DNA from: Acidimicrobiia bacterium
Lineage (GTDB): Bacteria > Actinomycetota > Acidimicrobiia > Spongiisociales > ZC4RG35
Assembly: GCA_965215185.1 (NCBI GenBank)
Contig: OZ244034.1
Location: 2,464,001 to 2,528,000, forward strand
Direction: 5' to 3'
DNA: 64,000 nt
The notes below the pieces were generated by a model. That model saw only the letters and a program-made list of their open reading frames with translations. It searched no databases and was not told where the DNA came from. Both the position numbers and the translations under genes were made by a program. Position 1 is the first letter of the stretch, and each line of letters opens with the position of its first letter. Shown here piece after piece: positions 2,497 to 41,067 of the stretch.

Positions 2497-2751
2497 CTGC
2501 CTGAGGGTAATGCTTTTCCAATGAAGGACGGTGGGCCCGTTGCCCGTGATAAATCTCAATGGAAGTCAAGATAGGCGAGGGGTTTGCGAATGGCTGACCG
2601 CATTTGGTGCACCGTATTCGGGGTAACGGGCGTCGGGACTGGGTGGCGGTAGGCCCGTCGGATAGTGTATCTTCATGGGTATGAGTCGGTATAGGCATGT
2701 TCTTCTGCGGTGGCCTCGGGCTGATCGTACGCCTGGCGGGGAGGTCCGTGC

Positions 2752-15306: not shown

Positions 15307-15331
15307 CCGGCCCTTGGTGTCCGGGAGGAAT

Positions 15332-17186: not shown

Positions 17187-17239
17187 TTACAAAAAATAAA
17201 TGGACGGGCTACCGGCCCAGCCCGTCGTTTGAAACTGTT

Positions 17240-17548
17240 TCACCACGGTTCGATGAATACCTGGATCGTGCCTCCGCAGGACAGCCCCACTGTGAAGGCG
17301 TCCTCGTCGCTGATCCCGTAGGTCACCAAGCGAGGACGACCCTCTGCCATGACTCTGCGGGCGTGCTCGTAGACATCGTTTTCGACGCAGCCCCCGGACA
17401 CGGACCCAGCCATGTTTCCTTCTGAAGAAACCAGGAATTTGGATCCGACCGGACGCGGGGAAGGACCGGCGGTGGCCACCACCGTGGCTACCACCACTTG
17501 CTTTCCTTCCGCCAGCCAGCGATCCCTGGTTTCCAATGCCTCTTGCAT
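17240..17548 (-). CDS. XdhC/CoxI family protein, N-terminal part
   Basis: [21 protein letters not shown]. Confidence 0.88.
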
Positions 17549-18666
17549 TATCTCCTCCGCTCCGGCAATGATTCCAAGAGTGATACCAGCGTAGCAAGAT
17601 CGGATAGCCTGCCTCCTGCCAGAAAATCGTCAACATGAGGCAAGGCGGCCTTCATACCTTGAGTTTCGGGGGAAAAGCCTTGGCGAGAGGCCAAAGGATT
17701 GACCCAGATCAACCGGTGAACGGTCCGGCGCAGGCGTGCCATCTCCCTGGACAGCACCTCCGGATCTCCGCGATCCCATCCGTCGGAAATGATCAGGGCA
17801 ACCGGTCCGCCCCTGGTGACCCGCCTGCTCCACTCATAATTGAAGGTCCGCAGACACTCTCCTATCCTGGTTCCCCCCGACCAATCTTCCACCGACTGGG
17901 AGACCTGAGCAAGAGCCTCGGTGGGGTTGCGACGCAACAACTGGCGAGTGATCCGGGTCAGGCGGGTGGAGAACACGAAGGTCTCCATCTTCCCCAAGCG
18001 AGCGCGCGCCGCGTGCGCGAAATACAGCAGCATCTCCGTGTAGCGCTCCATGGAACCTGACACGTCGGCGATGAACAGAATCGGGCGAGGCCGGGTCCGG
18101 CGCTCGCTTCGCTCCAATTTGATCAGGTCCCCCTCCGGCCCCACGCACTTGCGCAGGGTACGCCGCAGGTCGGGACGGTCTCCCTTCGGAGAAGGACGCC
18201 GCCGCCGACTCCTAACCGGAGCCGGGCGCCAGACCATCTGCGTCAAGAGAATGCGCACCTTGGCCTGCTCGTCCTTGCTCAACTCTGAAAAATCCTTCTG
18301 GGACAGCCGCTCCGCCCAAGACGCGCCGGTGAAGGTCTCCATCTCGGGTCCGGCCGCCTCCCCGTCCCCCTCTGCTCCTCTTTGAATCCCCTTAATTGTC
18401 CACAAACGGGGCTTGGGCGGTGACGCCATGGCAATTCCGCTCGTTAGGTTGCGGCCGAAGAACCTCACAAACACCCGGTCGAAGGTAGTTAACTGCCACG
18501 GCGAGGTCACCGTCAGGCAACGAAACGCGGCGTACACGTCGGCGGCGGAGGCCAGTCCCACCTTATCCACAGCCGCCATCAGATCGGCGGCGGTGGTCGT
18601 TCCCACAGACAGCCCCTCGGAACGCAACTCCCGCGTGAATTCCACTAAGGTCTGAACGCCGGCCAT
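17548..18666 (-). CDS. coxE: CoxE-like VWA domain protein
   Basis: [25 protein letters not shown]. Confidence 0.85.
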
Positions 18667-24596: not shown

Positions 24597-25772
24597 TTAG
24601 AGTTTCTCGATGATGGTGGCGTTGGCCATCCCCCCACCCTCACACATGGCCTGCAATCCGTAGCGGGTACCGGTTCTCACCATCTCGTGTACCAGAGTGG
24701 TCAAAAGCCTTGCCCCCGAGGCGCCCAGCGGGTGCCCAAGGGCGATGGCGCCACCGTTGACATTGGAGCGCTCCCAAAGACCCTCCACGTCACTACCCCC
24801 GTATTCGGCTCGCCAAGCGGCCACCACCGAGGAAAATGCCTCGTTGATTTCGAACAGTCCGATGTCGTCAATGGTCAGACCGGCCCTCTCCAGAGCTTTA
24901 GCCGTAGCCGGAATCGGCCCGGTGAGCATCATCACCGGATCAACTCCCGCCAGGGCAAACGAGACGAACCGCGCCATGGGCGCCAGGTTGAGTTGCGAGG
25001 CCCGCTCTTCGCTCATGATCAGCACCGCGGCCGCGCCATCGGATATCTGAGAAGAGTTCCCGGCGGTGATCTTCCCATCCGCCTTGAAGGCGGGAGGAAG
25101 GCCAGCCAAGGCTTCCAGGCTGGTGGTCCGGCGAATGCCCTCATCGACGGTCATCACCTCTTGGGCGCCTCCCACCGTCACAGTCACCGGTTGGATCTGT
25201 GATTGGAAACGGCCTTCGTCGGTTGCCCGCATTGCCCTCTGGTGAGAGAGAAGCGAAACCTGATCGAGTTCCCCGCGGCTCAGTCCCCACTTGTCGGCGA
25301 TCATCTCTGCCGAAATCCCCTGCGGAACCAAACCGTTGGCATAGCGCTCCATCACTTTGGGGCCAAACGGAAGCCCGGGACCCAATTCAGCGGTGATCCC
25401 CATCGGAACCCGGGTCATCGACTCCACCCCGGCGGCGATCACCACGTCGTACGCCCCGGCCATAACACCCTGGGCGGCGAAGTGGGCAGCTTGCTGAGAT
25501 GATCCGCACTGGCGGTCGATCGTGACTCCCACCACCTCCTCGGGGAATCCCGCCGCCAACGCCGCGTTGCGCGCCACGTTCAGGCTCTGTTCGCCAGTTT
25601 GCATGACGCAGCCGCATATCACGTCCTCCACCAGACCCGGATCCACATCGTTGCGTTCCATGAGAGCAGCCAAAGGAATAGCCGCCAAGTCCACAGAGTG
25701 GATTCCGGACAGTTTCCCCTTGCGTCTACCTGCCGGAGTGCGCACCGCATCTACGATTACAGCCGACTTCAT
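24597..25772 (-). CDS. Acetyl-CoA C-acyltransferase (thiolase)
   Basis: DRQCGSSQ, EINEAF, GHPLGASG, MCEGGG. Confidence 0.95.
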   Translation of the reverse strand: MKSAVIVDAVRTPAGRRKGKLSGIHSVDLAAIPLAALMERNDVDPGLVEDVICGCVMQTGEQSLNVARNAALAAGFPEEVVGVTIDRQCGSSQQAAHFAAQGVMAGAYDVVIAAGVESMTRVPMGITAELGPGLPFGPKVMERYANGLVPQGISAEMIADKWGLSRGELDQVSLLSHQRAMRATDEGRFQSQIQPVTVTVGGAQEVMTVDEGIRRTTSLEALAGLPPAFKADGKITAGNSSQISDGAAAVLIMSEERASQLNLAPMARFVSFALAGVDPVMMLTGPIPATAKALERAGLTIDDIGLFEINEAFSSVVAAWRAEYGGSDVEGLWERSNVNGGAIALGHPLGASGARLLTTLVHEMVRTGTRYGLQAMCEGGGMANATIIEKL

Positions 25773-25949
25773 CTTCCTGCTCCTCTCGGGTGTGTTTTGT
25801 TCACTACATCGGGCGTGGAGACGACGTTCGCGCCGATTGGATTTCCATCGTGTTCATACGTCTCCCGGGCATGTGTTTGTCCAGGTCGTGGCCTATTTGT
25901 GGTTGTCTGGTCGTCTCAGGACGTTCAGCAGCCGCCACAACAAGCGCAC

Positions 25950-26125
25950 TACTTTGATTCGTTTATGGAGTATAAGCCACCCTGGTCGCTTTGGCGACGG
26001 CCGAGGAGGCCATGGTCGAGCCTGATAGTCCATCCCGGCCGCAATCGAGGGGCGGCTTTCCAAAGCCTGGGCGCAGAGGACCCGGATTAAGCCCCAAAGG
26101 AGACCGCACTATGCTCGATTTGCCC
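25950..26125 (+). pseudogene. Integrase Arm DNA-binding domain remnant
   Basis: PGRFGDGRGGHG...GRLSKAWAQR across frameshifts; homologous to 40921-41067 and to the 57795 integrase N-terminus (PGRFSDG). Confidence 0.7.
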
Positions 26126-26209
26126 CTCAGACCCCGTGGGGCATTCCAAGTGTTCGCCCACCAACGTCATTGGCCGAGGGTGGGCAAGGTAGAAAGGGAA
26201 AGGTTTCAC

Positions 26210-26564
26210 ATGAGACTTAGATGACGGTGGATGGCGACGGTGGCGCTTGTGTCGGTTGTGTCGGCAGCCTGCGGAACTGATTCGGATAGCCCAGCGACCA
26301 GCCAGGACAGTGCCGGTGAGGTGGCTTCTTCGGACGCGTCGACGGGAAAGGTCTCGGCGAACAACGCCAGCGAAGAAGATCTGCTGGCAGCGTTCGAGGA
26401 GGCGGGAATCCCGAACGCTGAGCAATTGGTCCCACGAGGTCGAGGAGTACCGCCCGTACCCCGTCGACGATCCCAGCTTCCAGAAGCTGCGGGCCGAGCT
26501 CCACAAGTACAACCCCGGGCCCGGCGTCGTAGATGCCGTAGTGGCGCTGTTGGAGCTGTCCTGA
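26210..26564 (+). pseudogene. Small lipoprotein, disrupted
   Basis: RBS and ATG 26210, in-frame TGA at 26222, lipobox SAAC, +1 frameshift near 26426 joining ...GIPNAEQ to WSHEVEEYRPYP...KYNP. Confidence 0.65.
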
Positions 26565-26744
26565 CACACAAACACATCTTCGAGGGAACCGCCGGGTCGC
26601 GGCGGGCGGGATCGCTGTTCCTGACGGCTCTTTTGGTGGTGAGTCCGGTGTGCCGGGTGCGCTGAGGAGGGATGGAGTCGAGCGGGTACCCTTCATCCCG
26701 GAAACCCAGCTTCCGGATCAGTTGGTCAGAGAGGAGATTCGCTC

Positions 26745-27662
26745 ATGCGCATTGTTGCAACTATTGGCTCGGAGGCTCTGGGCGTCGCCCGCGCTCCCAG
26801 CGATGTGTTGACAGATGCTGTGGCCGCTGAGAAAGCCGGGTTCGCGGCGGCTTGGTGCAACCATTTCAGCAGGAACATGGATTCCCTGGTCATGCTGGCG
26901 GCCGCCGCGCGAGCCACCTCCCGGATCGAATTGGGAGTTGGGGTGATACCAACCTATCCGCGGCATCCGGTAGCCATGGCGCAATCGGCGGCAACGGTAC
27001 AGGAGTTGGCCTCGGGCCGGTTGGTCTTGGGGGTGGGAGTGTCCCATCGCGTGGTCATTGAAGGTATGCACGGCCTGGACTACTCAAGCCAACTCGGACA
27101 TCTCCGGGAATACCTGACCGTGCTGGGCGCCCTGCTCGCGGAAGGCCAGTGTTCCTTCCAGGGGGAGCATTATCGGGTCCGGGCAGCCATCCAGGTTCCT
27201 GGCACCAGCCCTGTTCCGGTAATAGTGGGCGCGGTTGGTCCCGCCATGTGCCGGTTGGGGGGAGAGTTGGCCGACGGGGTGAACACCTGGATGGCCGGTC
27301 CCAAATACATCGAGGACGTGGTTGCTCCGATGGCTGCTGAGGGCGCCGGGGTCTCGGGCCGGTCCTCGCCACGAATAGTGGCCGGAATCCCCGTGTCTCT
27401 CGACTCTGATCGGGATCGGGCTCTGCAGGTCGCCGCCTCCACTTTCGCCATGTATGGCATGTTGCCCAACTATCGACGCATGCTGGATCGTGCGGGAGTG
27501 GACGGTCCCGCTGATGTAGTGATCGCCGGAGACGAGAAAACGGTGCGGTCGGGACTGCAAGCCTTTCTCGATGCGGGCGCCACTGATGTCTGGGCGGTTC
27601 CGTTCGATACGGGGAACGGCACGGCCCCAACTCTGGAGTTGCTGGCGGATTTGGCCGATTAG
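26745..27662 (+). CDS. LLM-class (probably F420-dependent) oxidoreductase
   Basis: ATSRIELGVGVIPTYPRHP, GRLVLGVGVSH, GELADG. Confidence 0.88.
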   Translation: MRIVATIGSEALGVARAPSDVLTDAVAAEKAGFAAAWCNHFSRNMDSLVMLAAAARATSRIELGVGVIPTYPRHPVAMAQSAATVQELASGRLVLGVGVSHRVVIEGMHGLDYSSQLGHLREYLTVLGALLAEGQCSFQGEHYRVRAAIQVPGTSPVPVIVGAVGPAMCRLGGELADGVNTWMAGPKYIEDVVAPMAAEGAGVSGRSSPRIVAGIPVSLDSDRDRALQVAASTFAMYGMLPNYRRMLDRAGVDGPADVVIAGDEKTVRSGLQAFLDAGATDVWAVPFDTGNGTAPTLELLADLAD

Positions 27663-27666
27663 AACC

Positions 27667-27915
27667 TCAGGGGGTCGGGAAAGAGACCGTCCCTAACAGG
27701 CCCGTTTGTTCCTGCCACTCGACCGGATTTAACTGCCGTTCCCTGACCAGCGGTTGTAGGGTTTCAAAGCGTAGGCTGGCGCGCAGGGCCTCCAACGCCA
27801 GCACCCGATTCGGGTCGATGTTGCCCAGACTCACGTTGGGTCCGAACCGTTGGATGAATGTGACCTGCTGGCTCTTGTCGGGCGCCTCCCACACCAACCG
27901 GTCCACAGCTTCCCC
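27667..27915 (-). pseudogene. comA: Phosphosulfolactate synthase (ComA/XcbB-like), C-terminal remnant
   Basis: WEAPDKSQQVTFIQRFGPNVSLGNI...LEALRASLRFET matches the ComA C-terminal pattern; about 80 aa left. Confidence 0.8.
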
Positions 27916-28298
27916 GGAAGGCGGAGTGGGTGGCTATGCCCCAAGCATGCGCCATGACCCTGGCGGCCACCGGTTTCGCCACAGTCTTGCTGGAAGGACT
28001 GGTGGTTGACCGTGAGCGAATGAGAGAGAACATCGACGCTCGCCGAGGTTTCGTCTTTGCCGAGCCGGTGATGCGGGCGCTGGCCGACCAGATCGGAAAA
28101 CACACGGCGCATGACGTCGTCTACGAGGCTTCGATGAAGGGAGTGGAGTCGGGCATGGGATTCGTTGATGCGCTCCTGGCCGACGAACGGGTGACCCGGC
28201 ACCTGGATCGCGATGAGATAGAGAGCCTGTTTGACCTGGAGAAGGTGCTGGGAGCGGCGCCGGATCTGGTGGACCGAGTGCTGGAGGCCGGTGCTTGA
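27916..28298 (+). pseudogene. Adenylosuccinate lyase-like (XcbD-like), C-terminal remnant
   Basis: KAEWVAMP, LEGLVVDRERMRENI, GKHTAHDVVYE; N-terminal part missing. Confidence 0.8.
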
Positions 28299-29239
28299 CC
28301 GCCCGGGTGTCCGTCGCCACCCTTCCCACCCCACTGGTGGCGGCGCCCCGGCTCTCTGAGGCCCTGGGACTGGAGGTCTGGCTCAAGCGGGATGATCTGA
28401 CCGGCTTGGGCTTAGGGGGCAACAAAGCTCGACCCCTCGATTACCTGCTGGGGGACGCCCTGGCCGAAGGCGCTGACTATTTCGTGACGGGCGGCGGGCC
28501 GGGCTCCAACTGGGTGCTCATGGCGGCTTTAGCCGCTCTGGGCAGGGGTCTGGGGGTGGAGGTGGTGCTGTTCGGCACTGATGATGCTCCCGCCGTCGGT
28601 TGCCTGCGTCTCCTGAAGCAGCTGCCGGGCGTGGGAATCACATTCACGGGTTCTCCGGAGCGGTCCTCGGTCGACACTCTGCTGGAGTCGGTTTCTTCCC
28701 GACTGCGAGAGCGCGGGCGCCGACCCTATGTGGTTGGCCGGGGAGGGGCCGAACCTGTCGGCGCCTTGGGATACGTAGATGCCGTCGACGAGATGGGCCC
28801 ACAACTGGCGGACAAGGGGATAGCTGCGGGTACCGTCTGGTTGGCCACGGGGTCATGCGGGACCCAGGCTGGCTTGGTTGCCGGGTACCGCAGGCCGGGA
28901 CGGAGCGGAACCCGAATTGTCGGGGTTTCCGTTCACCGGCCGCTGGAGGAGTGCCGTCAGCGGATAACCGCTATCTCTGACGCCGCCCTCGATCTCTTGG
29001 AGGTGGAGATCAGACCGGAGGTGGAGTGGGAGGTTTTGGATGGGCTCAGCCCCGATCCGGTGAGAGTCAGAGAAGCTGCCCGGCTGATGATGACAACCGA
29101 GGGGATCTTCCTGGATCCCGAGTTCGGCGCTCCCGCTTTTGCCGCTCTGGCGAACGGGGCCGACCAGGTTACTGAACCGGTGGTGTTTCTGGTCACCGGA
29201 GGGGCGCCAGGGCTGTTCGCCGGGAGCCCTCTAACATGA
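28295..29239 (+). CDS. PLP-dependent D-cysteine desulfhydrase/ACC deaminase family (XcbE-like)
   Basis: LPTPL, KRDDLTGLGLGGNKAR, GALGY, GSCGTQAG, TEGIFLDP. Confidence 0.88.
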   Translation: MTARVSVATLPTPLVAAPRLSEALGLEVWLKRDDLTGLGLGGNKARPLDYLLGDALAEGADYFVTGGGPGSNWVLMAALAALGRGLGVEVVLFGTDDAPAVGCLRLLKQLPGVGITFTGSPERSSVDTLLESVSSRLRERGRRPYVVGRGGAEPVGALGYVDAVDEMGPQLADKGIAAGTVWLATGSCGTQAGLVAGYRRPGRSGTRIVGVSVHRPLEECRQRITAISDAALDLLEVEIRPEVEWEVLDGLSPDPVRVREAARLMMTTEGIFLDPEFGAPAFAALANGADQVTEPVVFLVTGGAPGLFAGSPLT

Positions 29240-30741
29240 CGAACCCGCCCGAAGGCTATCTGGGATCCGAAGGGCGCCTGGCAGCCGGCCCATCGCCCCG
29301 GTTGGTAGAGGCAGGGTATGCCCTGGAGTTGGCCGACGCTTCGTTCTTGCACAGCGGACTCTGTCTGGCCGACTTGGCCCACATTCTGGAACTGGATGAG
29401 ATCGGAGTGCTCCCCGAAGGCGCCGCCGCCGCTCTATGCCGGGAGTTGCTCGATTTCATGTCGACCCCGGTAGAAGAATTTCCCTACGACCCCGTCTACG
29501 GGGATGCCTACAACAGCCGCGAGCGGGAACTCGAGAAGCGCTTGGGGAGAATCGCCGGGTGGTTGCCCACCGGTCGCACCCGCAGAGAGGCGGGCCGGAT
29601 CGCATTGAGGCTGGCATTGCGGGAGAGGCTGCTGCAACTGCACGAGGCGGTGGCCGGGCTGGCTTCGACCCTGGCGAGCCGGGGAGCAGAGTTGGCGGAA
29701 GCCGCTTGGAACGACACCACGTACCTTCAGCCCGCCCAGCCTTCCAGCTTCGGCTATTACCTGGCCGGGTTCGCAGAGCAGGCCACCCGTGATCTGGAAC
29801 GCATCCGGTTGTGCCACCGGTGGGTGAATCGGTCGCCGGCCGGCTCCGGCGGGGTGGGGGGAACGACCATTCCTCTTGACCGGGAACGCTTGGCAACCCA
29901 ACTGGGGTTCGACGAACCCACCGCCCACATTCGGGACGGCATGTGGTCGGCGGACTCTCTGGTGGATGCCGCGGTGGCCTCGACACAGGCGGTGCTCACC
30001 ATTGATCGGCTGGCCGAAGACCTGGAGATCTTCACCAGCCCCCAGTTCGGCTACGTGCGGCTCGCCGGCGCAACATCACGGGCTTCGGTGCTGTTGCCGC
30101 AGAAGCGCAACCCCTACTCGTTGTCGGTTATTCGGGGAGGCGCCGGGACCCTTATCGGTAGGGCGGCGGGTCTGATGGCCACCCAGAGAACTCCGTCGGC
30201 TCGGACCGATAACTGGCTGTACGCCTATGGGGAGGTGATCGCAGCAGTGGAGATGGCCACAAGGCTGGTCAGGCTAGGAGAAGAGGTTGTGGGCGCCATG
30301 GAAGTTGACGTGGCGACCTTGGAGGGCTCAGCCGGGGCCCATTTCTCGCTGGCGACCGATCTGGCCGAGCGGATGGTGCTCCACCAGGGCCTGGACTACC
30401 GGAGTGCTTATCGCGTCGTGGGCCGGGCGGTGGCGGAAGCTGAGGCAGAAGGGCGACGTTGGCCTGCCGCGGGTGACCTTGCCCGGGCGGCACAGGAACT
30501 GGGCATCGACGCTGAAATGGGGGATCTGGATGGAGGGGCGGACGCGGAAGGGAGCCCCTCGGAGTTGTTGAACCTGAGGAAGGGAACCGGTTCCTGTTCA
30601 CCCGCCCGGGTGTTGGACCATTGCCGGTCCGTACAGAATGCGGTTGCCCGCGCCCGGCAGTGGTCGACCGGCGCTACCGAAAGGGCCCAGGCTGCGGTCT
30701 GCGGGCTCCTGAAGGCCGCGTCTACAATCGCTGAGCATTAG
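29236..30741 (+). CDS. Argininosuccinate lyase-like aspartase/fumarase superfamily protein (XcbC-like)
   Basis: TYLQPAQP, RLAEDL, variant signature ASVLLPQKRNP, ATDLAE, YRSAYRVVG. Confidence 0.85.
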   Translation: MTNPPEGYLGSEGRLAAGPSPRLVEAGYALELADASFLHSGLCLADLAHILELDEIGVLPEGAAAALCRELLDFMSTPVEEFPYDPVYGDAYNSRERELEKRLGRIAGWLPTGRTRREAGRIALRLALRERLLQLHEAVAGLASTLASRGAELAEAAWNDTTYLQPAQPSSFGYYLAGFAEQATRDLERIRLCHRWVNRSPAGSGGVGGTTIPLDRERLATQLGFDEPTAHIRDGMWSADSLVDAAVASTQAVLTIDRLAEDLEIFTSPQFGYVRLAGATSRASVLLPQKRNPYSLSVIRGGAGTLIGRAAGLMATQRTPSARTDNWLYAYGEVIAAVEMATRLVRLGEEVVGAMEVDVATLEGSAGAHFSLATDLAERMVLHQGLDYRSAYRVVGRAVAEAEAEGRRWPAAGDLARAAQELGIDAEMGDLDGGADAEGSPSELLNLRKGTGSCSPARVLDHCRSVQNAVARARQWSTGATERAQAAVCGLLKAASTIAEH

Positions 30742-30743
30742 AC

Positions 30744-30932
30744 ATGCCAGTGCTGCAGATCAGATGTCCCGATTGTGATCACCAGTATCGCTCCCTGGTG
30801 CCGCCGGGGGCCAGAACACCGAAGGTATGGGTCTGCTCCAAGTGCGGGGGGCGTGACGGCCAGCCTGTGGGCGAGATCACCGATTCCGATCACCCTTGGT
30901 CGGATCAGACCATGGATGCCTGCTGCGGCTAG
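30744..30932 (+). CDS. FmdB-like zinc-ribbon protein
   Basis: MP...CPDC...CSKCG; starts 2 bp after the lyase stop. Confidence 0.7.
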   Translation: MPVLQIRCPDCDHQYRSLVPPGARTPKVWVCSKCGGRDGQPVGEITDSDHPWSDQTMDACCG

Positions 30933-31208
30933 TCACCTCCGCAACAGTTGATAGACCCGTGCCTCTGCCGGACACCGGCGGCCAACGCAGGTGAAGTGCC
31001 CGATCTGCCCGGCTCGCTGTACGTAAGGTCTTCACGCTCGCCACTCTTGATCGACTCGTTCAGGCCACCCGCCCTCCGCGACTTCACTTCCTCCTGACCG
31101 TCCTCAAGCCCATGTGCTCACTCGTAAGGTGCCTGTGGGAGGTGGGGCATCCCGTGTGTCGCAATGTCGCCGCCGGAGTATCACCACCAGGAAAACCCGA
31201 GCGGTTCA

Positions 31209-31810: not shown

Positions 31811-31990
31811 TATCCGCCACCGTGGGTCTGTGATGCGGTCTGGGTTTGTTCGAGGTCCGGTCTCCGTGGGCACCGCTGTGCCGAGGGTTAGCTTTTGCGT
31901 TTCTCCTGAGAATCGAGTTGGCGATCCGGGGTCGCCTGGAAGCGTTTCGGACAATACTGAGGATTCTTGATTGTTGATGAGGTAAAGAGT

Positions 31991-34378
31991 ATGAGCGGGC
32001 GGCGTTACCTCTGTGTCGGTGTTTTGGTGGTTGTGCTGGTGGGGACGGTGGCTGCTCCGACTGTGGCCCAGGAAGCCCCCCCTTCTGAGGATGGGGGTGG
32101 GTTTGTGGACATTGAAGGGAATCCTCACGAGGAGGACATCCGCTTTATCGTGAAACGGGGACTAACGGTGGGGTGTGACCTCGACGGGCCTCGGTACTGT
32201 CCTGATAGTCCTGTTACAAGAGCGCAGATGGCCGCTTTCTTGGTCCGCGCTCTCCGTTTAGACACCACTGGTCCCTATTTGGGTGTGTATTCCGACGTTG
32301 AGGAGGGCACCTGGTATACCCGTGTTGTTGAAGCAATGGGTGCGCACGGGCTCCCCGATACCCAAGTGTCGGGGAGTTACCGACCTTACGATCCCATGCT
32401 CCGTTCGGAAATGGCCATTTTCCTGCAAAAGGCGTTCCGGCTTCCGCTAAGCGATGAGGCATCAGCTTCTTCGTTCCAGGATATACCAGCAGACGCCACT
32501 TATGCCGCAGCGGCCGAAGCCGTACTGGAAGCGGGAATCACCCGTGGATGCGGTGTCGAACCCCTCCGTTACTGTCCTAACGACACAGTCAAAAGGGACA
32601 CCATGGCCGCCTTCTTGGCCAGAGCCATCCGCACATCAGACCTCAAAAAGGTACTGGCCTTGGCACCCGGACGGGAGACCCTTCGGCCTAGCACCATCGG
32701 GGCACACACGTGGAAGGTCTGGGTCTGCGACAACGCTCCCATCAAAGAAGATCCCGTAGTCTATCTCAACCGTGAAATCAGCTCGTATTACCAGTGGCTG
32801 TCGGGCAGGAAATATCGGATGCGATTCGAATATGGCACCGACCCCACTCCGGAGGTCAGCGCGGTTCTGGACAACTGCGAGAACAAGGGCCACTGGAACC
32901 TTAGACCTGCGGGCAACAATATCTTCGTAGGGAGTGATCTATGGACCGTCGGATTCCCCGTCGGCGGTAGAGGGGGAGGGCACTTCGACTCTCAGAGCCA
33001 GCAGTTCTCCCGGAATGTCTGGATGGACAAACGGTCAGTGTATGACACCACTGCGTACGCTCACGAGATCGGCCACACCTTCGGATGGCCCCACAATCAT
33101 AGGGATAGGAACTCTCCAGCATCAGAGCCTCTGCATACCAGGATGGACATCATGGCCAGCCTCGGGCAAGTGATTGGTACCAATGCGCACAATCTCTTTC
33201 AGTTGGGTTGGATAGACCCAGAGAAAGTAGCACTCCATTCCGCAGGAGCGGCCACCTACACGATCACTCCACCCCATTCAGGAGGGGACCTCGAATTGCT
33301 GATGCTACCTCTGGGACCCGACCGGCTCATCAGTATCGGAGCCCGGGTCAAGGAAGGCCTCGACAAGAACATCCGCACAGCCGGAGTCGAGCTTTATGAG
33401 ATAGCCTTCTGCGGGTCGATCCCGGGCTGCAAACAGGTTTACCTTCCCCCCGGCGCCCAGTCCAAGGATCCTGTAGTCCTAGACGTTGGAGACTCTTGGA
33501 CAGCTCGCGTAACAACGACCCCCGGGGGTAGGCACTCGCAGACCCTCGACATCAAGGTGTCGGTAACCGATCGGCACAACCGATCTTACACCCTAAATGT
33601 AGAGCAAACTACCGTGAGGGAAGAGGAAGATGAGGTCTCTTGGATCACGGTGGGGAAAGGTGGAACTTGCATGCTCCTGACCAGCGGAGCCGTGTTCTGC
33701 TCGGGCGGGGTGCGATCAGTTCCAGAAGGGACATTCACATCTCTAAGTGTCGGATCCTACGCCTGCGGGACGAAAACAGAAGGCGGCATCGAATGCTGGG
33801 GCGGACGGTACGAGGGCATTACAACCCCTAGTGAAGAGTTCACCTCTGTCAGTGTTACTGGCCGCCATGCGTGTGCCCTTCGCAATGATAAAACAGTGGC
33901 GTGCTGGGGACTAGCCAGTGATAGTGAACCCGTCGTTCAACCTCCGGACGGAGAATTTATCTCGGTAAGCCCTGGTCTCTCCCACGCCTGCGGCATTCGA
34001 GTTGACCAAACGGTGCAGTGCTGGGGACAAAACAGTGATGGCGCGGACCTGGCACCACCACCACATGGGGAAGTCTCTGCCGTCAGCTCAGGGGCTAACT
34101 TCTCATGCGGTTTGCGGCCCGATACAAGCTTGACCTGCTGGAGTACACTAAGGGGCTACGGATGGTGGCAACCTCCCCCCGGCCAGTACACCTTTGTTGA
34201 AGCCGGATGGAACGACGCCTGCGCAATCCGCACCGACGGTACCGCCACCTGCTGGGGCCACGGTTACGTCGACTCCACGCCTCCAGAAGGTATCTTCACC
34301 GCCCTCAGCGTTGGGTACCGCCGTGCTTGCGGCCTGCGACCCGACCACACCGTCGAATGCTGGGAGACACCTCGCTAG
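31991..34378 (+). CDS. Secreted protein with SLH-like repeats, zinc metalloprotease domain and RCC1/BLIP-II-like repeats
   Basis: Signal peptide; VTRAQMAAFL-type repeats; HEIGHTFGWPH plus DIM Met-turn; repeated CG.R.D.T..CWG units. Confidence 0.85.
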   Translation: MSGRRYLCVGVLVVVLVGTVAAPTVAQEAPPSEDGGGFVDIEGNPHEEDIRFIVKRGLTVGCDLDGPRYCPDSPVTRAQMAAFLVRALRLDTTGPYLGVYSDVEEGTWYTRVVEAMGAHGLPDTQVSGSYRPYDPMLRSEMAIFLQKAFRLPLSDEASASSFQDIPADATYAAAAEAVLEAGITRGCGVEPLRYCPNDTVKRDTMAAFLARAIRTSDLKKVLALAPGRETLRPSTIGAHTWKVWVCDNAPIKEDPVVYLNREISSYYQWLSGRKYRMRFEYGTDPTPEVSAVLDNCENKGHWNLRPAGNNIFVGSDLWTVGFPVGGRGGGHFDSQSQQFSRNVWMDKRSVYDTTAYAHEIGHTFGWPHNHRDRNSPASEPLHTRMDIMASLGQVIGTNAHNLFQLGWIDPEKVALHSAGAATYTITPPHSGGDLELLMLPLGPDRLISIGARVKEGLDKNIRTAGVELYEIAFCGSIPGCKQVYLPPGAQSKDPVVLDVGDSWTARVTTTPGGRHSQTLDIKVSVTDRHNRSYTLNVEQTTVREEEDEVSWITVGKGGTCMLLTSGAVFCSGGVRSVPEGTFTSLSVGSYACGTKTEGGIECWGGRYEGITTPSEEFTSVSVTGRHACALRNDKTVACWGLASDSEPVVQPPDGEFISVSPGLSHACGIRVDQTVQCWGQNSDGADLAPPPHGEVSAVSSGANFSCGLRPDTSLTCWSTLRGYGWWQPPPGQYTFVEAGWNDACAIRTDGTATCWGHGYVDSTPPEGIFTALSVGYRRACGLRPDHTVECWETPR

Positions 34379-34574
34379 ATGAGCTTCCCACATAGGTGGG
34401 TTCCAAGTTGGGTGATGGGTAGTTGGCCTTGTAGTGAGCTGTGGGGTCTGCGGTGATCCCTGTTCAGCCAATCTCTTATTACCGGCAATGATGAAGGCTT
34501 TTTCCTCAGGAGTTGGTGGCCGGTCAGGGAAGACCAGCCGATGCTCCAGTCGGATCACGCAAGCCGCCACCCCG

Positions 34575-34843
34575 ACCCTTTCGACAGCGACCGATCTCAC
34601 CTGTTCGGCTTGTGCCTTGGAATCGCGGTCTAGTCCCGTCTCGGCAGCGTCCAACAGAACTTGGAACGGGTAAACCCGTTTCGTGTTCGACGTGACAGGA
34701 ACGACTATGACAACCCCACGTCCAAGCCGTGCCGCAATCGTGTTGGCACCGTCATTGCTGACGATCACAGCCAGCCGGATCCGGGCTGCCTCGACCCCGA
34801 CGACGTTACCGAGATTCACGACGCGGATGTCTCCGCGACGCAT
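34575..34843 (-). pseudogene. mazF: MazF/PemK toxin, C-terminally truncated and chimeric
   Basis: MRRGDI...VIVSNDGAN...VVPVTSN...YPFQV...DSKAQAEQVRSV; family similarity ends after ERVG. Confidence 0.8.
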
Positions 34844-34847
34844 CAAC

Positions 34848-34910
34848 TAAACCCCGTCGGCAACGGTGGCATCCCACGCCTCTTCGTCTCGTTGGATGCC
34901 CGCTCCACCC
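34848..34910 (-). pseudogene. MazE-like antitoxin C-terminal remnant
   Basis: EEAWDATVADGV-stop immediately before mazF. Confidence 0.55.
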
Positions 34911-35000
34911 AAAGGAGGGGATCGCCCGCCATCCCTATACTGCTGACGACCCATGGGCGATCAACACGATTCATCCTCATCGGATCCGCTGGTCTTGTTG

Positions 35001-35425
35001 ATGATTGACTGGCGTGGCTGCCCTGTCGTGGAATACGTTCCAGACAAAGTTTCCGGCAAGCCCTCGTTCGCCGGGTTGCGGTTGCCTGTCGGGATCTTTG
35101 TTGATTGGGTAACCGGTGGACACAGCATAGAAGACTTCGAAGATGGTTATCGCGTGGGATTGAACAAACTACGCGTTGCCGCGGAATACCTCAACAGTGA
35201 CCCGCCTGTCCAAGTCGCTGATCTGAGGAAGTGCCCAGAGGTAGAATTCAGACCCGACGGTACCCCTGGTCTGACGGGTTCCGGGTTCCCAGTAGATATA
35301 ACTTCAACCACCTCAAGGGTGGCCGTACATCACAAGAAATCTGCGACAACTTCGGAGTTGATCACAACCAGGTCCGGTCGGTTATAGCCTGCCTTGCCGA
35401 CCCTAAGGAGTCAACAGCCAAATGA
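35001..35425 (+). pseudogene. Tandem DUF433 antitoxin-like protein, frameshifted near 35300
   Basis: SGKPSFAGLRLPV...SIEDF and a second unit GTPGLTGSGFPV/FNHLKGGRTSQEICDNF. Confidence 0.7.
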
Positions 35426-35625
35426 AAATCCTTCTCGACAAATGCGTGCATGAGGGACTACGGCATCATCTTCCCGGCACAGTTCACACGGCTCGGTACA
35501 TGGGCTGGGGCTCATTGCCCAACGGCAAGCTGCTCGACGAAGCCGAGCGGCATGGGTATGACGTTGTCGTGACGGCAGACAGCCGTATGATTGTCCAGGG
35601 AGACCGAACCCGCTGCTTGCGTTAA
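35422..35625 (+). pseudogene. DUF5615 PIN-like toxin, truncated
   Basis: MKILLD...GW...NGKLL...VVTAD; only 67 aa. Confidence 0.7.
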
Positions 35626-35707
35626 AGAGTTTGACCATTTTCCCCACCAGAAAAGAGGGGAAAAGACACTTGCAATTGTACGTCGATGCGACGTACACTG
35701 AGTCCTT

Positions 35708-35980
35708 ATGGACACAAAGACCAAACGGTGGACCCTCAGGGTGACACCGGCCCAGGACACAATCGTGCGCCAGGTACTGAGTACCAGCGGGATGTCACTG
35801 AGCGAGTACGTAGTCAGCCGTGCAGTCGCCTCGGCTGTCGAAGACCTAGCCGACCGTCAGGTCTTTGCCGTGTCTGCAGAGGTTTGGGAAAAGCTTCAAG
35901 AGGTGCTCCAACGCCCGGCGACAGCCAAGCCCAAGATCGCGGCGTTGCTGGCCGAGGACTCGGTACTCGACTCGGGGTGA
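35708..35980 (+). CDS. TacA/DUF1778 RHH antitoxin
   Basis: LRVTP, SLSEYV, LADRQVF...W...L.RP. Confidence 0.85.
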   Translation: MDTKTKRWTLRVTPAQDTIVRQVLSTSGMSLSEYVVSRAVASAVEDLADRQVFAVSAEVWEKLQEVLQRPATAKPKIAALLAEDSVLDSG

Positions 35981-36465
35981 GCCCATATCAGGGGCCAGAG
36001 CTGCTGGCTGCTTCGCATGATGTTGGCAGATTCGACTGCGGAAACGAGTCTCTCAACCACTGGATCAAGAGTCGGGCGCCACGCAATCAGCGAGAAGGTT
36101 CAAGCCGTACCTGGGTCGTTACGGACGGCACTGGGGTGGTCGGTTTCTACGCGTCTGCCACGGCGGTAGTGGCCCGTACAGAGGCCACTACACGCGCTGC
36201 CCGTAACCAGCCCGACCCTCTGCCCGCAATGCTCCTCGGTCGTCTGGCCGTTGACCGCAACCACCAAGGTAAGGGCCTCGCCGCGGCACTGCTCAAACAC
36301 TTCCTCCTCAAAGCGCTCGAAGTAGCCGAACTCACCGGGCTACGGCTGGTGCTAGTCCACGCCAAAGACTCCCAGGCCGCTGGCTTCTACCGCCACTACG
36401 GGTTCGAACCTTCCCGAGTCGACGACCTGACACTCATGCTATTGATCAAAGACATCCAACCCTGA
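35977..36465 (+). CDS. GNAT toxin (TacT/AtaT-like)
   Basis: FDCGNESLNHW, LLGRLAVD...QGKGL, VHAKD, FYRHYGF; GTGA overlap with the antitoxin. Confidence 0.88.
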   Translation: MSPYQGPELLAASHDVGRFDCGNESLNHWIKSRAPRNQREGSSRTWVVTDGTGVVGFYASATAVVARTEATTRAARNQPDPLPAMLLGRLAVDRNHQGKGLAAALLKHFLLKALEVAELTGLRLVLVHAKDSQAAGFYRHYGFEPSRVDDLTLMLLIKDIQP

Positions 36466-36977
36466 AAAGCGCTGGGCGTGCAATCTCCGTCGGACGTGGC
36501 GCCAAAAAGAAATGGCAGGGCTGGGCAGTTATCGGACAATTAGAGCGACCTTGCCCCTCGGCAACAGTTCGCTTTTTGCTGTCGCCTCAAAGCGCATCGA
36601 CCTGGGCGAAGTGGCCTGCACCTACATCATCACCGCCTATGTCGAGGCCCACCAACGCCAAACATAAACCCTTCAATGAGCCTCTTATCGGCTGACCAAG
36701 CCCCCCGGCACCGCCCCATCCAGGGACCCCTTCCCACTTAGCAAGGCCCGGCCTGCTATTGATTCCGTGGCCACTCGGCGATGCGGTGGGGGTGTCGTAG
36801 TGGTTGACTCTTTGTTCGACTGGTTGCAGTCCGGTGTTTTCGGTGATCTGGTGGGTGATGTTTTGGTCGGACCGCAAGGTGCGCCGAAGGCCCAAGCCCA
36901 CGGGGTAACGGCCCTTTTGGGCTTTTCTTTGGAATTGCGGTGCCCCGTGTCCCAGGCGTCGGGTACGGTTCGGAGTC

Positions 36978-37943
36978 ATGCAACTTCAGCTCCCGGAACC
37001 CGGGTCGGTATTGTCAGCCACGGCCGACAACCTGGCCAGTTCCCGCTCGATGGAGACCCGCCGTGCCTATCAGCGGATGGTTGGCCGTTGGGTGGAATGG
37101 GCGACCCGTCGGGGAGCCTGGCCCAAGACATGGACCACCCCTCCAGAGGGGTGGCGTTCTGCGACCGCCGGGGATGTGGCCGACTGGCTGTCGACCCTGG
37201 CCGCCACCGGCCTGGGTATCTCGACGGTGCGCACCGCCCGCGCTGCAAGTGTCGGCCGCCCATCGGGAGGGTGCCAGCCTCCAGACGCTCGCCGGTGGTC
37301 CGACGGTGGCCGATCCCACGCAGGATTGGCTGGTGTCAGCCAGATCGCCGGGATAGCCCGGCGTGTCGGCTCTTCGACGCAGGCGGCCGGGCTGCGAACC
37401 GACAGCTTTGCCCGGATCCTGGCCGTGGTGGAGTTGCAGGCCGACCCGAGCACCCCCCGAGGACGGATGGCCATCCGTGACGCGGCGCTTCTGTCGGTGA
37501 TGCGTGACGGGTTGTTACGCCGGGGAGAAGCCGCCGCGCTCCACTGGGACGACCTGACCATCGAAGACGACGGTTCGGGGCAGCTCACGGTGCAGCGTTC
37601 CAAGTCCGACCAGACCGGCGAGGGGGCGGTGCTGTGGATCAGTCCGCAGACCATCGAGGCGACAGAACGCTGGCGGAAAATAGCCACCACCACGTCCTCG
37701 ATGTTCGATCTGTCGGCCCGGTCGGTGGGTCGGGTGGTCACCCGCCGTGCCGAGGCGGTGGGTCTTCAGGCCTCCGGCCACTCTTTGCGGGTGGGAATGG
37801 CCCAGGACCTGGCCGCCTCGGGCATTAGCCTGCCCGAGTTGTGTCAGGCAGGCTGGTGGCAATCCCCGACAATGGCCATCCGTTATTTACGCTCCCAGGC
37901 GGCCGACCGGGGAGCGGTGGCCCGCTACTACCGGCATTCCTGA
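36978..37943 (+). CDS. Cre-like tyrosine recombinase, probably damaged
   Basis: RDAALL...LLRRGE, RSKSDQ, GHSLRVG, M..RY. Confidence 0.8.
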   Translation: MQLQLPEPGSVLSATADNLASSRSMETRRAYQRMVGRWVEWATRRGAWPKTWTTPPEGWRSATAGDVADWLSTLAATGLGISTVRTARAASVGRPSGGCQPPDARRWSDGGRSHAGLAGVSQIAGIARRVGSSTQAAGLRTDSFARILAVVELQADPSTPRGRMAIRDAALLSVMRDGLLRRGEAAALHWDDLTIEDDGSGQLTVQRSKSDQTGEGAVLWISPQTIEATERWRKIATTTSSMFDLSARSVGRVVTRRAEAVGLQASGHSLRVGMAQDLAASGISLPELCQAGWWQSPTMAIRYLRSQAADRGAVARYYRHS

Positions 37944-38179
37944 AACCTGAAAAAGGGCGCCCGGAACCGGCGGAATGCGAAAAAACCGCCTAAGGTGATC
38001 GCTCACTAGTGGCAGTTGCCGGACATCCCTCACTTTTTCTCAGAGCACCCCCCTTACCTTGTTGAGGTATATCCCTTGTGTGATGCTTGGGGCTGATCGC
38101 CCGCCACGGCGGCCTGGAGCGATTACCCCTGATTAGGAATCTGGACTGCGGCAAAGACAGTGGCGGCCAGCCATGGCGA

Positions 38180-38345
38180 CGCCCGATGCGGTGACGGTCG
38201 GTGACTACCACTTGAAGAATGTGGTTGCCTGGCACCTTGAAGGTCGCCCGCGTGGGACCGACGAAGAGATGATGGCACTTATCGGCGGCAGGGTGGTGAG
38301 ACTGTTGGAAGAGGCGGGCCCGGCGCCGTCGGTTCGGACCGGGCA
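38180..38345 (+). pseudogene. AlkA-like DNA glycosylase C-terminal fragment
   Basis: DAVTVGDYHLKNVVAW.LEGRPRGTDEEM. Confidence 0.6.
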
Positions 38346-38367
38346 TGCCGCTACGAGATTTTCGGTA

Positions 38368-39252
38368 TCAGTGAGTTGATCGCAGAAAAGAGACAATCGC
38401 CTCTCCCACGACCTGAGGGTTCGCCAAAGCACGGTGATACGCGTTAGGAATAACCTCAAGGGTCACGTCATGTCCCGCCGCTACCAAGGCGTCGGTGAAA
38501 TCCTGCGAATGGAAAGGGGGAGCCATTTCGTCCGCCCCGCCGGCCATCAGAAAAAAGCGACGCGGATCATGATTGACCGCTAGCTCAAGGGGATCGAGGA
38601 ATAGCCATAGGTTCTCGGGAACATGCCTCTTCACGGTATGGGCGAAAAACTCGGCCTGTAACCGGTCCCTCTTCCTCAGCCAATCGGCTCCTTCGGGCAG
38701 CAGGGTGGCCAGTGCAGCCTCATGCCAGAGATGTTTGATTTCATAAAGCCCACCCAAGCCGATCATGCCAACAATCTCGCTGGGTTCGTGAGGACAAGAT
38801 TGAGGAATGATGTCTCCCGAGAGGGTCGCCATGGCCACGAGGTTCGCCCCGGCAGAAAAGCCCAGCATCCACACCGGACCGGCCGGATAAGTGAGGTGCG
38901 GTTGTGCCAGCAAAGGCGCTGCGGATGCTATGCAAACCACTTCATGCAGTAGATACAAGAGGTGCCGCCCCTTTGACAAAGGTTGGTAATCGGCGTTGAT
39001 CGCCACCACCCCTTGAGAGGCCAGATATTCGGCCAAAGGTGAGAGTTGGGTACGATTTAGGGCACTATAGCCTCCACCGTAAGTGAGCGTCACTACTGGG
39101 TAGTTCCCCGGCTGAACAGGAGCGTGTATGTCAGCAAGGATCTGGGGCATGAACTCGACGGTTGAGACAGAAGCATCGTAGAGCGACGGCCGGGGTGATG
39201 GGCCGTCGCTCGGCAGAATCAGTCCAGATGAATTGGTCGAGGATTGGCTCAT
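38368..39252 (-). CDS. Alpha/beta hydrolase (esterase-like)
   Basis: YGGGY oxyanion loop, GFSAG nucleophile elbow, D and H triad candidates. Confidence 0.8.
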   Translation of the reverse strand: MSQSSTNSSGLILPSDGPSPRPSLYDASVSTVEFMPQILADIHAPVQPGNYPVVTLTYGGGYSALNRTQLSPLAEYLASQGVVAINADYQPLSKGRHLLYLLHEVVCIASAAPLLAQPHLTYPAGPVWMLGFSAGANLVAMATLSGDIIPQSCPHEPSEIVGMIGLGGLYEIKHLWHEAALATLLPEGADWLRKRDRLQAEFFAHTVKRHVPENLWLFLDPLELAVNHDPRRFFLMAGGADEMAPPFHSQDFTDALVAAGHDVTLEVIPNAYHRALANPQVVGEAIVSFLRSTH

Positions 39253-39569
39253 TGTCCGTCTGCTCCCTTGACTTGGTACACTTTGGAACCCTACAGGTGG
39301 CCGGGAACAAGACTAAGAGATTATCGGGTAGGGGTGTTGCCTGGCAGCGGCCAAGTCCTGGGGCCATTCCCGGACCCTAGGAACATGAACACCGCCTCCG
39401 GGATGCGATCTCTGGGACTGTCCTTCCCCCGACCGGACGAGGACCAGGAGCAACATTGAGCGATCCGGTCTGGGCGGCGCCATTCCATTGGGCTTGCCAT
39501 ACCGAGCGGTAACTTTTCTCGACCCTGCTCGGCGAACCGCCCGGATAAGCAGTTACCGGACAACCCTCT

Positions 39570-40150
39570 GGCTCCATCCCTTCGCCGATGGAAACGGCCG
39601 CACTGGAAGGGCGCTTATTCATGTGGCTCTGCGACGACGTGGCTTGGTGCCCAACTTCCTCCCGCCGGTGAGCCTGGTGCTCGCCAACTGGACGGACGAC
39701 TACATAGGAGGACTGACCGCTTACCGGCATACCTCCCCTCCAGATAGTCCCGCCCGTTCCGAAGCTGCCCACACCTGGCTGAGGACTTTCGCGGCAGCCA
39801 CCCGCCAAGCTTGCCTTCACGCTCGACATTACGCCGCCGCCATTACTGACCAGCACGCCAGCTGGCGGGAGCGGATCGCACGGACGCGTAGGGACTCCTC
39901 CTTATTGCTGCTACTAGCCGCTCTACCTGGGGCGCCAGTCATCTCGGTCAAGATCGCCGCCGCCCTCATCGGGCGCTCGACGGTGAACACCAACGCTGCC
40001 ATCAACAGACTGGTGGAAGCCGGAGTGTTGACCCAACGCAACATCGGTAAGCAGCGCTATCGAATCTTTGAGGCCCCCGAGGTCATCGATCTCATCACCG
40101 AGCTGGAGACCGTTCTCAGCACTCCTACTCGGAACATCCAAGACCACTAA
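39570..40150 (+). pseudogene. Fic family protein, C-terminal part with winged-helix tail
   Basis: HPFADGNGRTGR; no recognisable N-terminal half. Confidence 0.8.
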
Positions 40151-40164
40151 GTTGCGAGAACACA

Positions 40165-40400
40165 TGCGTGCCAGACAGGAGTGGAACGCCGAACAGATTC
40201 CGGATCTGACGGAGAAGGTGGTTGTGGTCACGGGGGCCAACAGCGGAATCGGACTGGAGGCTGCCAAAGATTTCGCCCGAAAAGGCGCCAATACGATCCT
40301 CGCCTGTCGATCAGGGAACGAGGACACCGGGCCGTCAGGGGCCTTAGGGAGGAGTTGCCCGACGCCAAGCTTCATCTGATGGCACTCTACCTTGCCAGCC
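40165..40400 (+). pseudogene. SDR oxidoreductase N-terminal fragment
   Basis: [19 protein letters not shown]...LACR, then frame is lost. Confidence 0.75.
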
Positions 40401-40635
40401 TGGCCTCCACAGAACCTCCAGAGACTCCCGGACCGCCAACGGCACTTCTTTCTCAATAGGCGCACCTTCCTACCACACCCGAACCCTCCGCTCTACCAGA
40501 AACAGCAGTAGCTTCCCACTCCTGTCTTTTTTCAGCCAACCCAGCAGAAGAAGAGCCAATCGATAGCCCACTACCCCATCCCCACCGTAGTGGGCTCTCC
40601 CACTACCTCAATCCTCCCAGCTACCCACTAACCCA

Positions 40636-40666
40636 TATGACTGATATTCGCTGAGTATCAGTCATA
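40636..40666. repeat. 13-5-13 inverted repeat related to the one at 31209
   Basis: TATGACTGATATT-CGCTG-AGTATCAGTCATA (one mismatch). Confidence 0.8.
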
Positions 40667-40920
40667 GCGAGGAAAAGGGAGGCTGTTTTAGTTGAGTGGA
40701 GGTGCGGTCAAGACAGGTTGGTTTCCTTGGTGGTTGAAGTGTCCTGTAGGCGTGTATTTGGCCAGGTCATGGGTTGTTTGTGGTGGTGGGGTTGTCCCAT
40801 GCCGTCCCATGTTGTCCCATCCAATCCGATGATCTTTGGAGTAACGATCGGAGTACCTCACAGGCGGGAACCACGGGGAAATGCCTTGCCGATGTTGAGA
40901 ATAGCGCAAAGGGGGAAGAG

Positions 40921-41067
40921 GTGAAACGACCAGCAACACTTTCGGCCACATTCGTTAGAAAATATACGCCAACCTGGTCGCTATGGCGACGGTCGAGGCG
41001 GTCATGGGCTTTCTCTCTTGGTCAAACCTACCAAGATCGAGGGGCGGGTTTCCAAGTCTTGGGCTCA
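40921..41067 (+). pseudogene. Integrase Arm-domain remnant cut by ISL3
   Basis: VKRPATLSATFVR/PGRYGDGRGGHGLSLLVKP...SKSWAQ. Confidence 0.78.

Follow-up and report, generated by a model that had tools for sequence, protein, structure and literature searches.

The window studied here is a 64,000-nucleotide stretch (G000:C1:2464001-2528000) of the 3.12-Mb single-contig genome of a sponge-associated Acidimicrobiia bacterium, called G000 below, and it contains the remains of a locus for coenzyme M (CoM). Bacterial use of CoM is known from few cultured alkene and epoxide degraders. We conclude with high confidence that the region is what remains of an actinobacterial-type locus for making CoM and using it in epoxide carboxylation, most of which was lost by one recent deletion. 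The ancestral product would have been CoM itself. An initial annotation of the window had proposed a partly destroyed xcb (CoM) cluster in a lineage that once made CoM, and congeners, which carry comA, xcbA, xcbD, xcbE and xcbC together, support that proposal. The four gene families it named were borne out by Pfam and NCBIfam profile matches, as were its two remnant calls, comA and xcbD, both of which survive as 3' ends only. The interval that it assigned to these genes, 27667-30932, also includes a zinc-ribbon open reading frame (ORF) at 30744-30932.

The deletion is apparent from comparison with the intact locus of a congener (genome G006, locus L105). Two collinear blocks align (blastn): window 26729-27917 matches L105rc 2642-3829 at 78.0% identity, and window 27916-30932 matches L105rc 14662-17675 at 75.5% identity. 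The 10,832 bp of G006 between these blocks have no counterpart in the window, placing the junction at 27916/27917, where the alignment shows a 2-nt GG microhomology, no foreign sequence and no insertion-element scar. Judged by G006, the missing DNA comprises about 205 codons of comA, genes for 2-ketopropyl-CoM carboxylase (2-KPCC), a CoA ligase, a 321-aa ORF, a CoA-transferase, an SDR, a 258-aa ORF and epoxyalkane:CoM transferase (EaCoMT), xcbA, about 322 codons of xcbD, and the divergent intergenic region. Illegitimate recombination between the 3' parts of comA and xcbD, in a single deletion of about 10.8 kb, produced this arrangement. It removed the divergent promoter region together with nine and a half genes, and spared the flanking F420-dependent LLM oxidoreductase gene, two back-to-back stumps, and intact xcbE, xcbC and zinc-ribbon genes. 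We also considered deletion mediated by an insertion sequence and rejected it, the junction having only 2 nt of microhomology and no foreign DNA.

The two stumps meet at the junction, 3' ends only, back to back and with 2 nt between them (Table 1). In the comA stump, the ORF at 27667-27906 on the reverse strand matches positions 197-241 of the 243 in PF02679 (60.6 bits) and positions 192-241 of the 241 in TIGR03849. Its open homologous frame (27670-27915, 82 codons) reaches the deletion junction, and its identity to the C-termini of congener ComA proteins is 73-82%, with the alignment extending to the junction. The xcbD stump contains a forward-strand ORF (27930-28298) that matches positions 327-443 of the 443 in NF052536 at 127.8 bits, compared with 54 bits for purB. 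Here the open homologous frame (27918-28295, 126 codons) starts at the junction, and its product is 86-87% identical to residues 323-444 of congener XcbD. The LLM gene, convergent with the comA stump and with a ratio of nonsynonymous to synonymous substitution rates (dN/dS) of 0.084, marks the left end of the conserved block, whose right end is the zinc-ribbon gene. The same genes occur in the same order in 79 related loci, so the arrangement in the window is not due to chance.

The intact locus in G006 indicates what was lost. In the orientation of the window, the LLM gene is convergent with comA (287 aa; TIGR03849 297 bits, cut-off 280), which is followed on its own strand by genes for a 523-aa flavoprotein disulfide reductase, an NDP-forming acyl-CoA ligase, a 321-aa ORF, a CoA-transferase, an SDR and a 258-aa ORF. 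The divergent arm encodes a 369-aa MetE-like protein, XcbA, XcbD, the XcbE-like and XcbC-like proteins, and the zinc-ribbon protein. XcbA and XcbD of G006 score 385 bits (cut-off 150) and 665 bits (cut-off 600), respectively. The disulfide reductase (L105 13961-15532) aligns over residues 5-522 with the 2-KPCC structures of Xanthobacter autotrophicus (1mo9 and others) at 787.9 bits. That alignment includes the identical stretch DELFLNPTHFIQL, which we take to carry the Phe/His pair distinguishing 2-KPCC from other family members. The MetE-like protein (7303-8412) is 79.5% identical to the pXAUT01 protein annotated as 2-hydroxypropyl-CoM lyase, that is, EaCoMT. For the SDR, the best solved relative is 4gh5/4itu at 204.9 bits, compared with 144 bits for the R-hydroxypropyl-CoM dehydrogenase (R-HPCDH) structure 2cfc; 4gh5 is presumably S-HPCDH. 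By these sequence matches, congeners are predicted to combine CoM synthesis with the classical CoM-dependent route of epoxide carboxylation in one locus. The initial annotation had noted that EaCoMT was lacking and reasoned that the thiol may have served another purpose; this argument falls away, as the deleted DNA encodes EaCoMT, 2-KPCC and an SDR in G006. It had also expected a HAD-type xcbA, a description that does not fit XcbA, which is a DUF7714 protein with a [2Fe-2S] cluster that acts as a reductase according to PMC9457059.

Since the Pfam domains at the locus are generic (Lyase_1, ADSL_C and PALP), we considered whether the genes could be ordinary ArgH, PurB and DcyD paralogues that became adjacent by chance, with no link to CoM. 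For all three proteins, however, the best-scoring models were Xcb models. The XcbC-like protein scores 392.5 bits to XcbC and 218.7 bits to argH, and its identity is 58.8% to the homolog on pNOCA01 of Nocardioides JS614, 60.8% to that of Mycolicibacterium chubuense NBB4 and 40.4% to that of X. autotrophicus Py2, compared with at most 30.5% to plasmid argH genes. In a maximum-likelihood tree of 24 rows, 21 XcbC-like sequences, including the XcbC of Py2 as a long branch, were separated from three ArgH rows, among them the ArgH of G000 itself, with support of 100/100. In this tree the protein encoded at 29236-30741 groups with X. autotrophicus XcbC, apart from ArgH. The XcbE-like protein scores 231.1 bits to XcbE, 198.6 to CuyA and 194.2 to the D-cysteine desulfhydrase family, and is 50.3%, 50.2% and 40.4% identical to the proteins of JS614, NBB4 and Py2, respectively, compared with at most 39.5% to DcyD-family genes. 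Its tree placed it in a clade with the xcbE products of JS614 and NBB4 (91/96), outside three DcyD-family rows (95/98). Its GGNK stretch aligns with the GGNK of PDB 1j0a and is presumably the holder of the lysine that binds pyridoxal phosphate (PLP).

Three results pull in the other direction. The XcbE-like score lies under the curated 'exception' cut-off of 450 for NF052537, the XcbC-like score lies under that of 575 for NF052535, the model of the phosphate-eliminating phosphosulfolactate lyase, and the XcbE tree leaves monophyly with X. autotrophicus XcbE undecided. Against chance adjacency, the genome has separate ArgH and PurB genes elsewhere, and linkage with comA, xcbA, EaCoMT and 2-KPCC is conserved. 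Of the 79 related loci, 64 have an EaCoMT-like gene next to the cluster (22 of 27 sponge-type and 42 of 52 other loci; matches covering less than 60% of the query were excluded from these counts). We therefore regard the paralogue explanation as almost certainly wrong. On sequence grounds, xcbE and xcbC of the window are probable members of the Xcb family, and neither is a housekeeping ArgH or DcyD gene.

The genome is a metagenome-type single-contig assembly, and the junction could in principle be an assembly artefact or a minority variant, with most cells carrying an intact locus. Two short-read contigs bridge it: record 19 of run X6 covers 26700-31000 with 0 differences, and record 14 of run X5 covers 27129-30418 with two differences. 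Runs X5-X8 contain 0.99-1.00 of the junction-spanning words, and no alternative joint at 27916/27917 was reported in the X5 and X6 runs. A further run from a different study, X1, contains a strain with 13 mismatches to the window over 1218 nt. One of its contigs (10,415 nt) matches up to 27917 and continues with 6905 unmatched nt, and another (5086 nt) matches from 27916 and has 4153 unmatched nt in the other direction; the two overhangs together are about the size of the missing segment. From these stop points and lengths, we infer that X1 contains an undeleted allele in a strain of about 99% identity. The presence of such a form in another sample lends the artefact explanation some support. 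Two further points weaken our case: X5 and X6 belong to the same study, which may include the source sample, making them weak independent support for the junction, and the undeleted allele in X1 is a reading of contig ends and lengths. With the junction bridged and its words nearly complete in four runs, we nevertheless consider an artefact or minority variant very improbable. Runs with near-identical DNA include sponge metagenomes, at a small share. One sponge metagenome, X2, covered seven of 30 bins in short pieces, and nothing was drawn from it.

The deletion in G000 is probably recent, given the apparent undeleted relative and the condition of the stumps. The median dN/dS of the comA stump against congeners is 0.117 (five pairs), compared with 0.135 among ten intact orthologue pairs, and the xcbD stump has a median of 0.117 (seven pairs), the same as the 0.117 among 21 intact pairs (rows with less than 70% identity or with gaps, and the duplicate L105, were dropped). 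The terminal branch of G000 in the XcbC tree is short, at 0.065 compared with 0.20 for its sister. The surviving full-length genes look equally fresh. None of 79 otherwise-invariant columns in xcbE and none of 148 in xcbC have changed, and their omega values of 0.115-0.178 compare with a congener range of 0.122-0.231 (23 and 26 rows, with loci giving split or short matches dropped); xcbE has the same length as its orthologues. Low dN/dS was rejected as proof of selection on xcbE and xcbC, since the dead stumps give the same value. Because the stumps share this ratio and the deletion is recent, the intactness of xcbE and xcbC is uninformative about retained function.

The rest of the genome offers no substitute for the lost genes. 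No ComA other than the stump was found in G000, XcbA (NF052538/DUF7714, the [2Fe-2S] thioaldehyde reductase) had no match, and XcbD was present only as residues 323-444 of 448. Besides ArgH, the aspartase/fumarase superfamily is represented outside the locus in G000 by a PurB-like gene that scores 258 bits to the XcbD model, at 32% identity. Searches with G006 proteins (tblastn) found no EaCoMT, CoA-transferase, 258-aa ORF or CoA ligase in G000, and the best 2-KPCC matches are generic relatives at 25-27% identity. A search for CoM-using enzymes, proposed in the initial annotation, thus found EaCoMT and 2-KPCC absent from the window and from the genome. As described by Wu et al. 2022 (PMC9457059), the CoM route consists of XcbB, XcbC, XcbD, XcbE and XcbA, each step is needed, and all five proteins were used for CoM synthesis in vitro. 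Because all five enzymes are needed and there is no second comA, xcbA or xcbD, CoM synthesis should be dead in this strain, which is predicted neither to make nor to use CoM. The remaining xcbE and xcbC would be orphans without substrate suppliers, intact-looking only because the deletion is very recent.

Intact frames and low dN/dS are, on the other hand, equally expected under continued selection, which tells against the orphan reading. The deletion could be real and xcbE and xcbC, with the LLM and zinc-ribbon genes, could be kept for a new job outside CoM metabolism, such as turning over a different phospho- or sulfo-acid and a cysteine adduct supplied by the host or by other members of the sponge community. 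Neither gene is shortened or altered at an invariant residue, their omega values are the low ones given above, the LLM orthologue is still open in a congener (G004) whose xcbC is already truncated and frameshifted, and comA-xcbC pairs without xcbD or xcbE in four Acidimicrobiia loci (L017, L024, L025 and L028) place XcbC-type lyases outside the five-gene pathway. Yet stumps that are certainly dead have equally low omega, which thus reflects recency only. The enzymes that make the substrates of XcbC and XcbE, ComA and XcbD, respectively, are gone from the genome, the divergent promoter region was deleted too, and the same genes were lost outright in G004. We consider a retained non-CoM function unlikely and favor recently orphaned genes.

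Presence of the locus is patchy among relatives. In 16 congeners searched, xcbC was found in seven, comA in six and xcbA in six (374-385 bits). Intact syntenic loci, which the initial annotation had suggested looking for, occur in full in six of the 16, and G033, from another family of the same order, has the full set as well. The closest of the 79 related loci belong to uncultured Acidimicrobiia and to metagenome-assembled genomes of 'Candidatus Spongiisociaceae'. Across those loci, xcbA is present in 22 of 27 sponge-type and 46 of 52 other loci, and xcbD in 22 and 47, respectively. In 24 of the 79 (tblastn), the zinc-ribbon gene lies immediately 3' of xcbC; these are exclusively loci of the Acidimicrobiia/sponge type, with no soil Actinomycetes-type locus among them. 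The diiron monooxygenase domain PF02332 was not found in the 16 congeners or in G000, and its sole match was in G025, from another family; the claim that no alkene monooxygenase accompanies the cluster therefore stands in this respect.

The congener G004 is best read, from its gene remains, as a second and independent loss. Its locus (L011 6979-9654) has the LLM gene, about 118 bp, and then an xcbC whose sequence begins only near codon 25 and whose frame shifts near codon 415; comA, xcbA, xcbD and xcbE are absent from the G004 genome, and about 25 nt of the end of comA survive. We considered whether the LLM-xcbC junction of G004 could be a later stage of the deletion in G000 and rejected this as the simplest reading. 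The two losses appear to be independent because a strain about 99% identical to G000 seems undeleted, while G004 is only about 78% identical to it in DNA. Other layouts were seen among the related loci. In the four Acidimicrobiia loci with comA-xcbC pairs, comA lies directly 5' of the XcbC-like gene and the flanks retrieved contain none of xcbD, xcbE and xcbA, a two-gene layout that differs from the CoM cluster. On a Methylocystis iwaonis plasmid (L112), comA, an xcbA-like gene, xcbD, xcbE and xcbC lie beside a Nit6803-family nitrilase gene and an MSMEG_0568 radical SAM gene, not epoxide genes.

Compared with known systems, the feature in the window is an ordinary relic of the bacterial CoM system in its actinobacterial layout. 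CoM is used for ethene and vinyl chloride degradation in Nocardioides JS614 and M. chubuense NBB4, whose plasmids pNOCA01 and pMYCCH.01 hold the closest XcbC and XcbE sequences in the plasmid collection. As in the sponge-type locus, genes for a CoA ligase, two CoA-transferases, one or more SDRs and a flavoprotein disulfide reductase diverge there from comA, xcbA, xcbD, xcbE and xcbC, with a TIGR03564 LLM gene nearby. In the sponge-type locus, however, comA is the outermost gene of the divergent arm and the xcb arm begins with EaCoMT, and the locus is chromosomal rather than carried on a plasmid, and deleted in this window. The megaplasmid pXAUT01 of X. autotrophicus Py2 (xecA-xecC-xecD/E and xcbABCDE; Wu et al. 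2022, PMC9457059) has the same five biosynthetic families and the same CoM-using enzymes as the intact locus of congeners, of which the window keeps only xcbE, xcbC and two stumps. Gene order differs, with xcbB-C-D-E running in one direction after the xec genes in Py2 and comA divergent from xcbA-D-E-C here. Py2 also has an alkene monooxygenase next door, whereas the PF02332 search found none in the 16 congeners, and the Py2 stretch lacks the F420 LLM and zinc-ribbon genes of the sponge-type locus. The EaCoMT of congeners, at 79.5% identity to that of Xanthobacter, is only 49.2% and 45.5% identical to those of JS614 and NBB4. Congener EaCoMT and 2-KPCC are thus much closer to the alphaproteobacterium X. 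autotrophicus than to the actinobacteria JS614 and NBB4, and for XcbC and XcbE the relation is reversed. This mosaic appearance of the locus suggests lateral transfer across phyla.

The F420-dependent LLM oxidoreductase may be an unrecognised component of the pathway. Its orthologue is present in exactly the seven of 16 congeners that hold xcbC, and the gene adjoins comA in all seven intact sponge-type genomes. More widely, a TIGR03564 F420 LLM gene travels with the actinobacterial CoM locus (window 26745-27662, L094-L100, L110 and L111). It follows xcbC in L078, L081 and L084, and it is annotated near xcbC on pNOCA01 and pMYCCH.01. No LLM gene was found in the pXAUT01 stretch.

Our literature search, in which subscription journals were outside coverage, found no report of a CoM pathway in sponge Acidimicrobiia; the one sponge paper found goes no further than naming a ComA transcript among C1 genes. 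Three points are new relative to the literature found: the CoM locus occurs in sponge-associated Acidimicrobiia, their genomes lack a diiron alkene monooxygenase, and the TIGR03564 F420 oxidoreductase is strictly co-distributed with the locus. The missing monooxygenase has a precedent in Methylohalobius crimeensis 10Ki, for which PMC11507031 describes CoM biosynthesis and an epoxide pathway that show signs of lateral transfer, in a genome that has no dedicated alkene monooxygenase. The monooxygenase situation of congeners is the same. M. crimeensis is a gammaproteobacterial methanotroph whose methane monooxygenase can supply the epoxide, and its last biosynthetic enzyme is, according to that paper, unlike XcbA, whereas congeners have a true XcbA.

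A tentative extension, which we think possible and somewhat doubtful, is that sponge Acidimicrobiia run a complete, self-supplied CoM-dependent epoxide carboxylation without a diiron alkene monooxygenase, with the LLM oxidoreductase as an extra dedicated component, as a dispensable strain-level trait lost in some host populations by single-step deletions. If so, these bacteria would consume epoxides made by the host or by neighbours, and the window would record such a loss almost at the moment it took place. The occurrence of a CoM locus in uncultured sponge Acidimicrobiia (six of 16 congeners and many related loci), repeatedly lost, raises the question of which epoxide is present inside the sponge. 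Near-identical deleted and undeleted alleles, the latter deduced from contig ends, would amount to a natural knockout pair that metagenomics or metabolomics could compare. For annotation, the practical point is that two intact xcb genes do not mean CoM production, and a wrong metabolic call is avoided.

Table 1. Features of the CoM remnant and of the stretch downstream of it (window positions).
Feature	Position	Strand	Remarks
F420-dependent LLM-class oxidoreductase, intact	26745..27662	+	TIGR03564 281.5 bits (cut-off 234)
comA (xcbB, phosphosulfolactate synthase), 3' stump	27667..27915	-	last 82 codons and stop of ~287
Deletion junction	27916..27917		10,832 bp of the G006 locus absent; 2-nt GG microhomology
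xcbD (3-sulfopropionylcysteine synthase), 3' stump	27918..28298	+	last 126 codons of ~448
xcbE-like PLP enzyme, full length, 314 aa	28295..29239	+	NF052537 best model, 231.1 bits
xcbC-like aspartase/fumarase-superfamily lyase, full length, 501 aa	29236..30741	+	NF052535 best model, 392.5 bits
62-aa CxxC zinc-ribbon protein	30744..30932	+	weak Zn_ribbon_8 / FmdB family matches
803-aa protein	31967-34378		SLH, reprolysin-like motif, RCC1 repeats
MazF-like toxin	34148-34846
TacA antitoxin and GNAT pair	35686-36465
Tyrosine integrase	36978-37943
Mutator-family transposase	41857-43142		split in two
ISL3 fragment	43270-43893

The surroundings of the locus bear on a further proposal, that the cluster lies on an island. 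Similarity to G006 at the DNA level is limited to 26729-30932. Upstream are housekeeping genes for a thiolase, CrgA, a GATase, a class II aldolase and NhaA, and 31-44 kb into the window is a mobile-looking accessory stretch of lower G+C (31967-44000) that, besides the features in Table 1, includes a DUF433 gene and a Fic fragment. No direct repeats, att sites or tRNA were identified at the block borders, and the tRNAs of the window are only at 1.2 kb and 59 kb. The term island is fair for the neighbourhood, with a right flank rich in mobile elements, and for the block from the LLM gene to the zinc-ribbon gene, which is patchy (seven of 16 congeners). It does not extend to the destruction of the cluster, which was a plain internal deletion with no insertion element, and no borders typical of an integrated element were found.

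To the left of the block, about 1 kb between the thiolase and LLM genes (25772-26745) has no Pfam-recognisable ORF (two candidate ORFs scanned) and no similarity to G006, and may hold the left breakpoint of the block. On the right, the HTH_66 gene found 3' of the zinc-ribbon gene in G006 has no match in G000. An NfeD gene and a 283-aa ORF that lie 2-4 kb downstream of xcbC in G006 are upstream of the locus in G000, at a distance of about 54 kb (G000:C1:2435737-2437772). These differences indicate a rearrangement with a breakpoint just after 30932. Since NfeD and the 283-aa ORF are flipped in order and strand, it was probably a large inversion.

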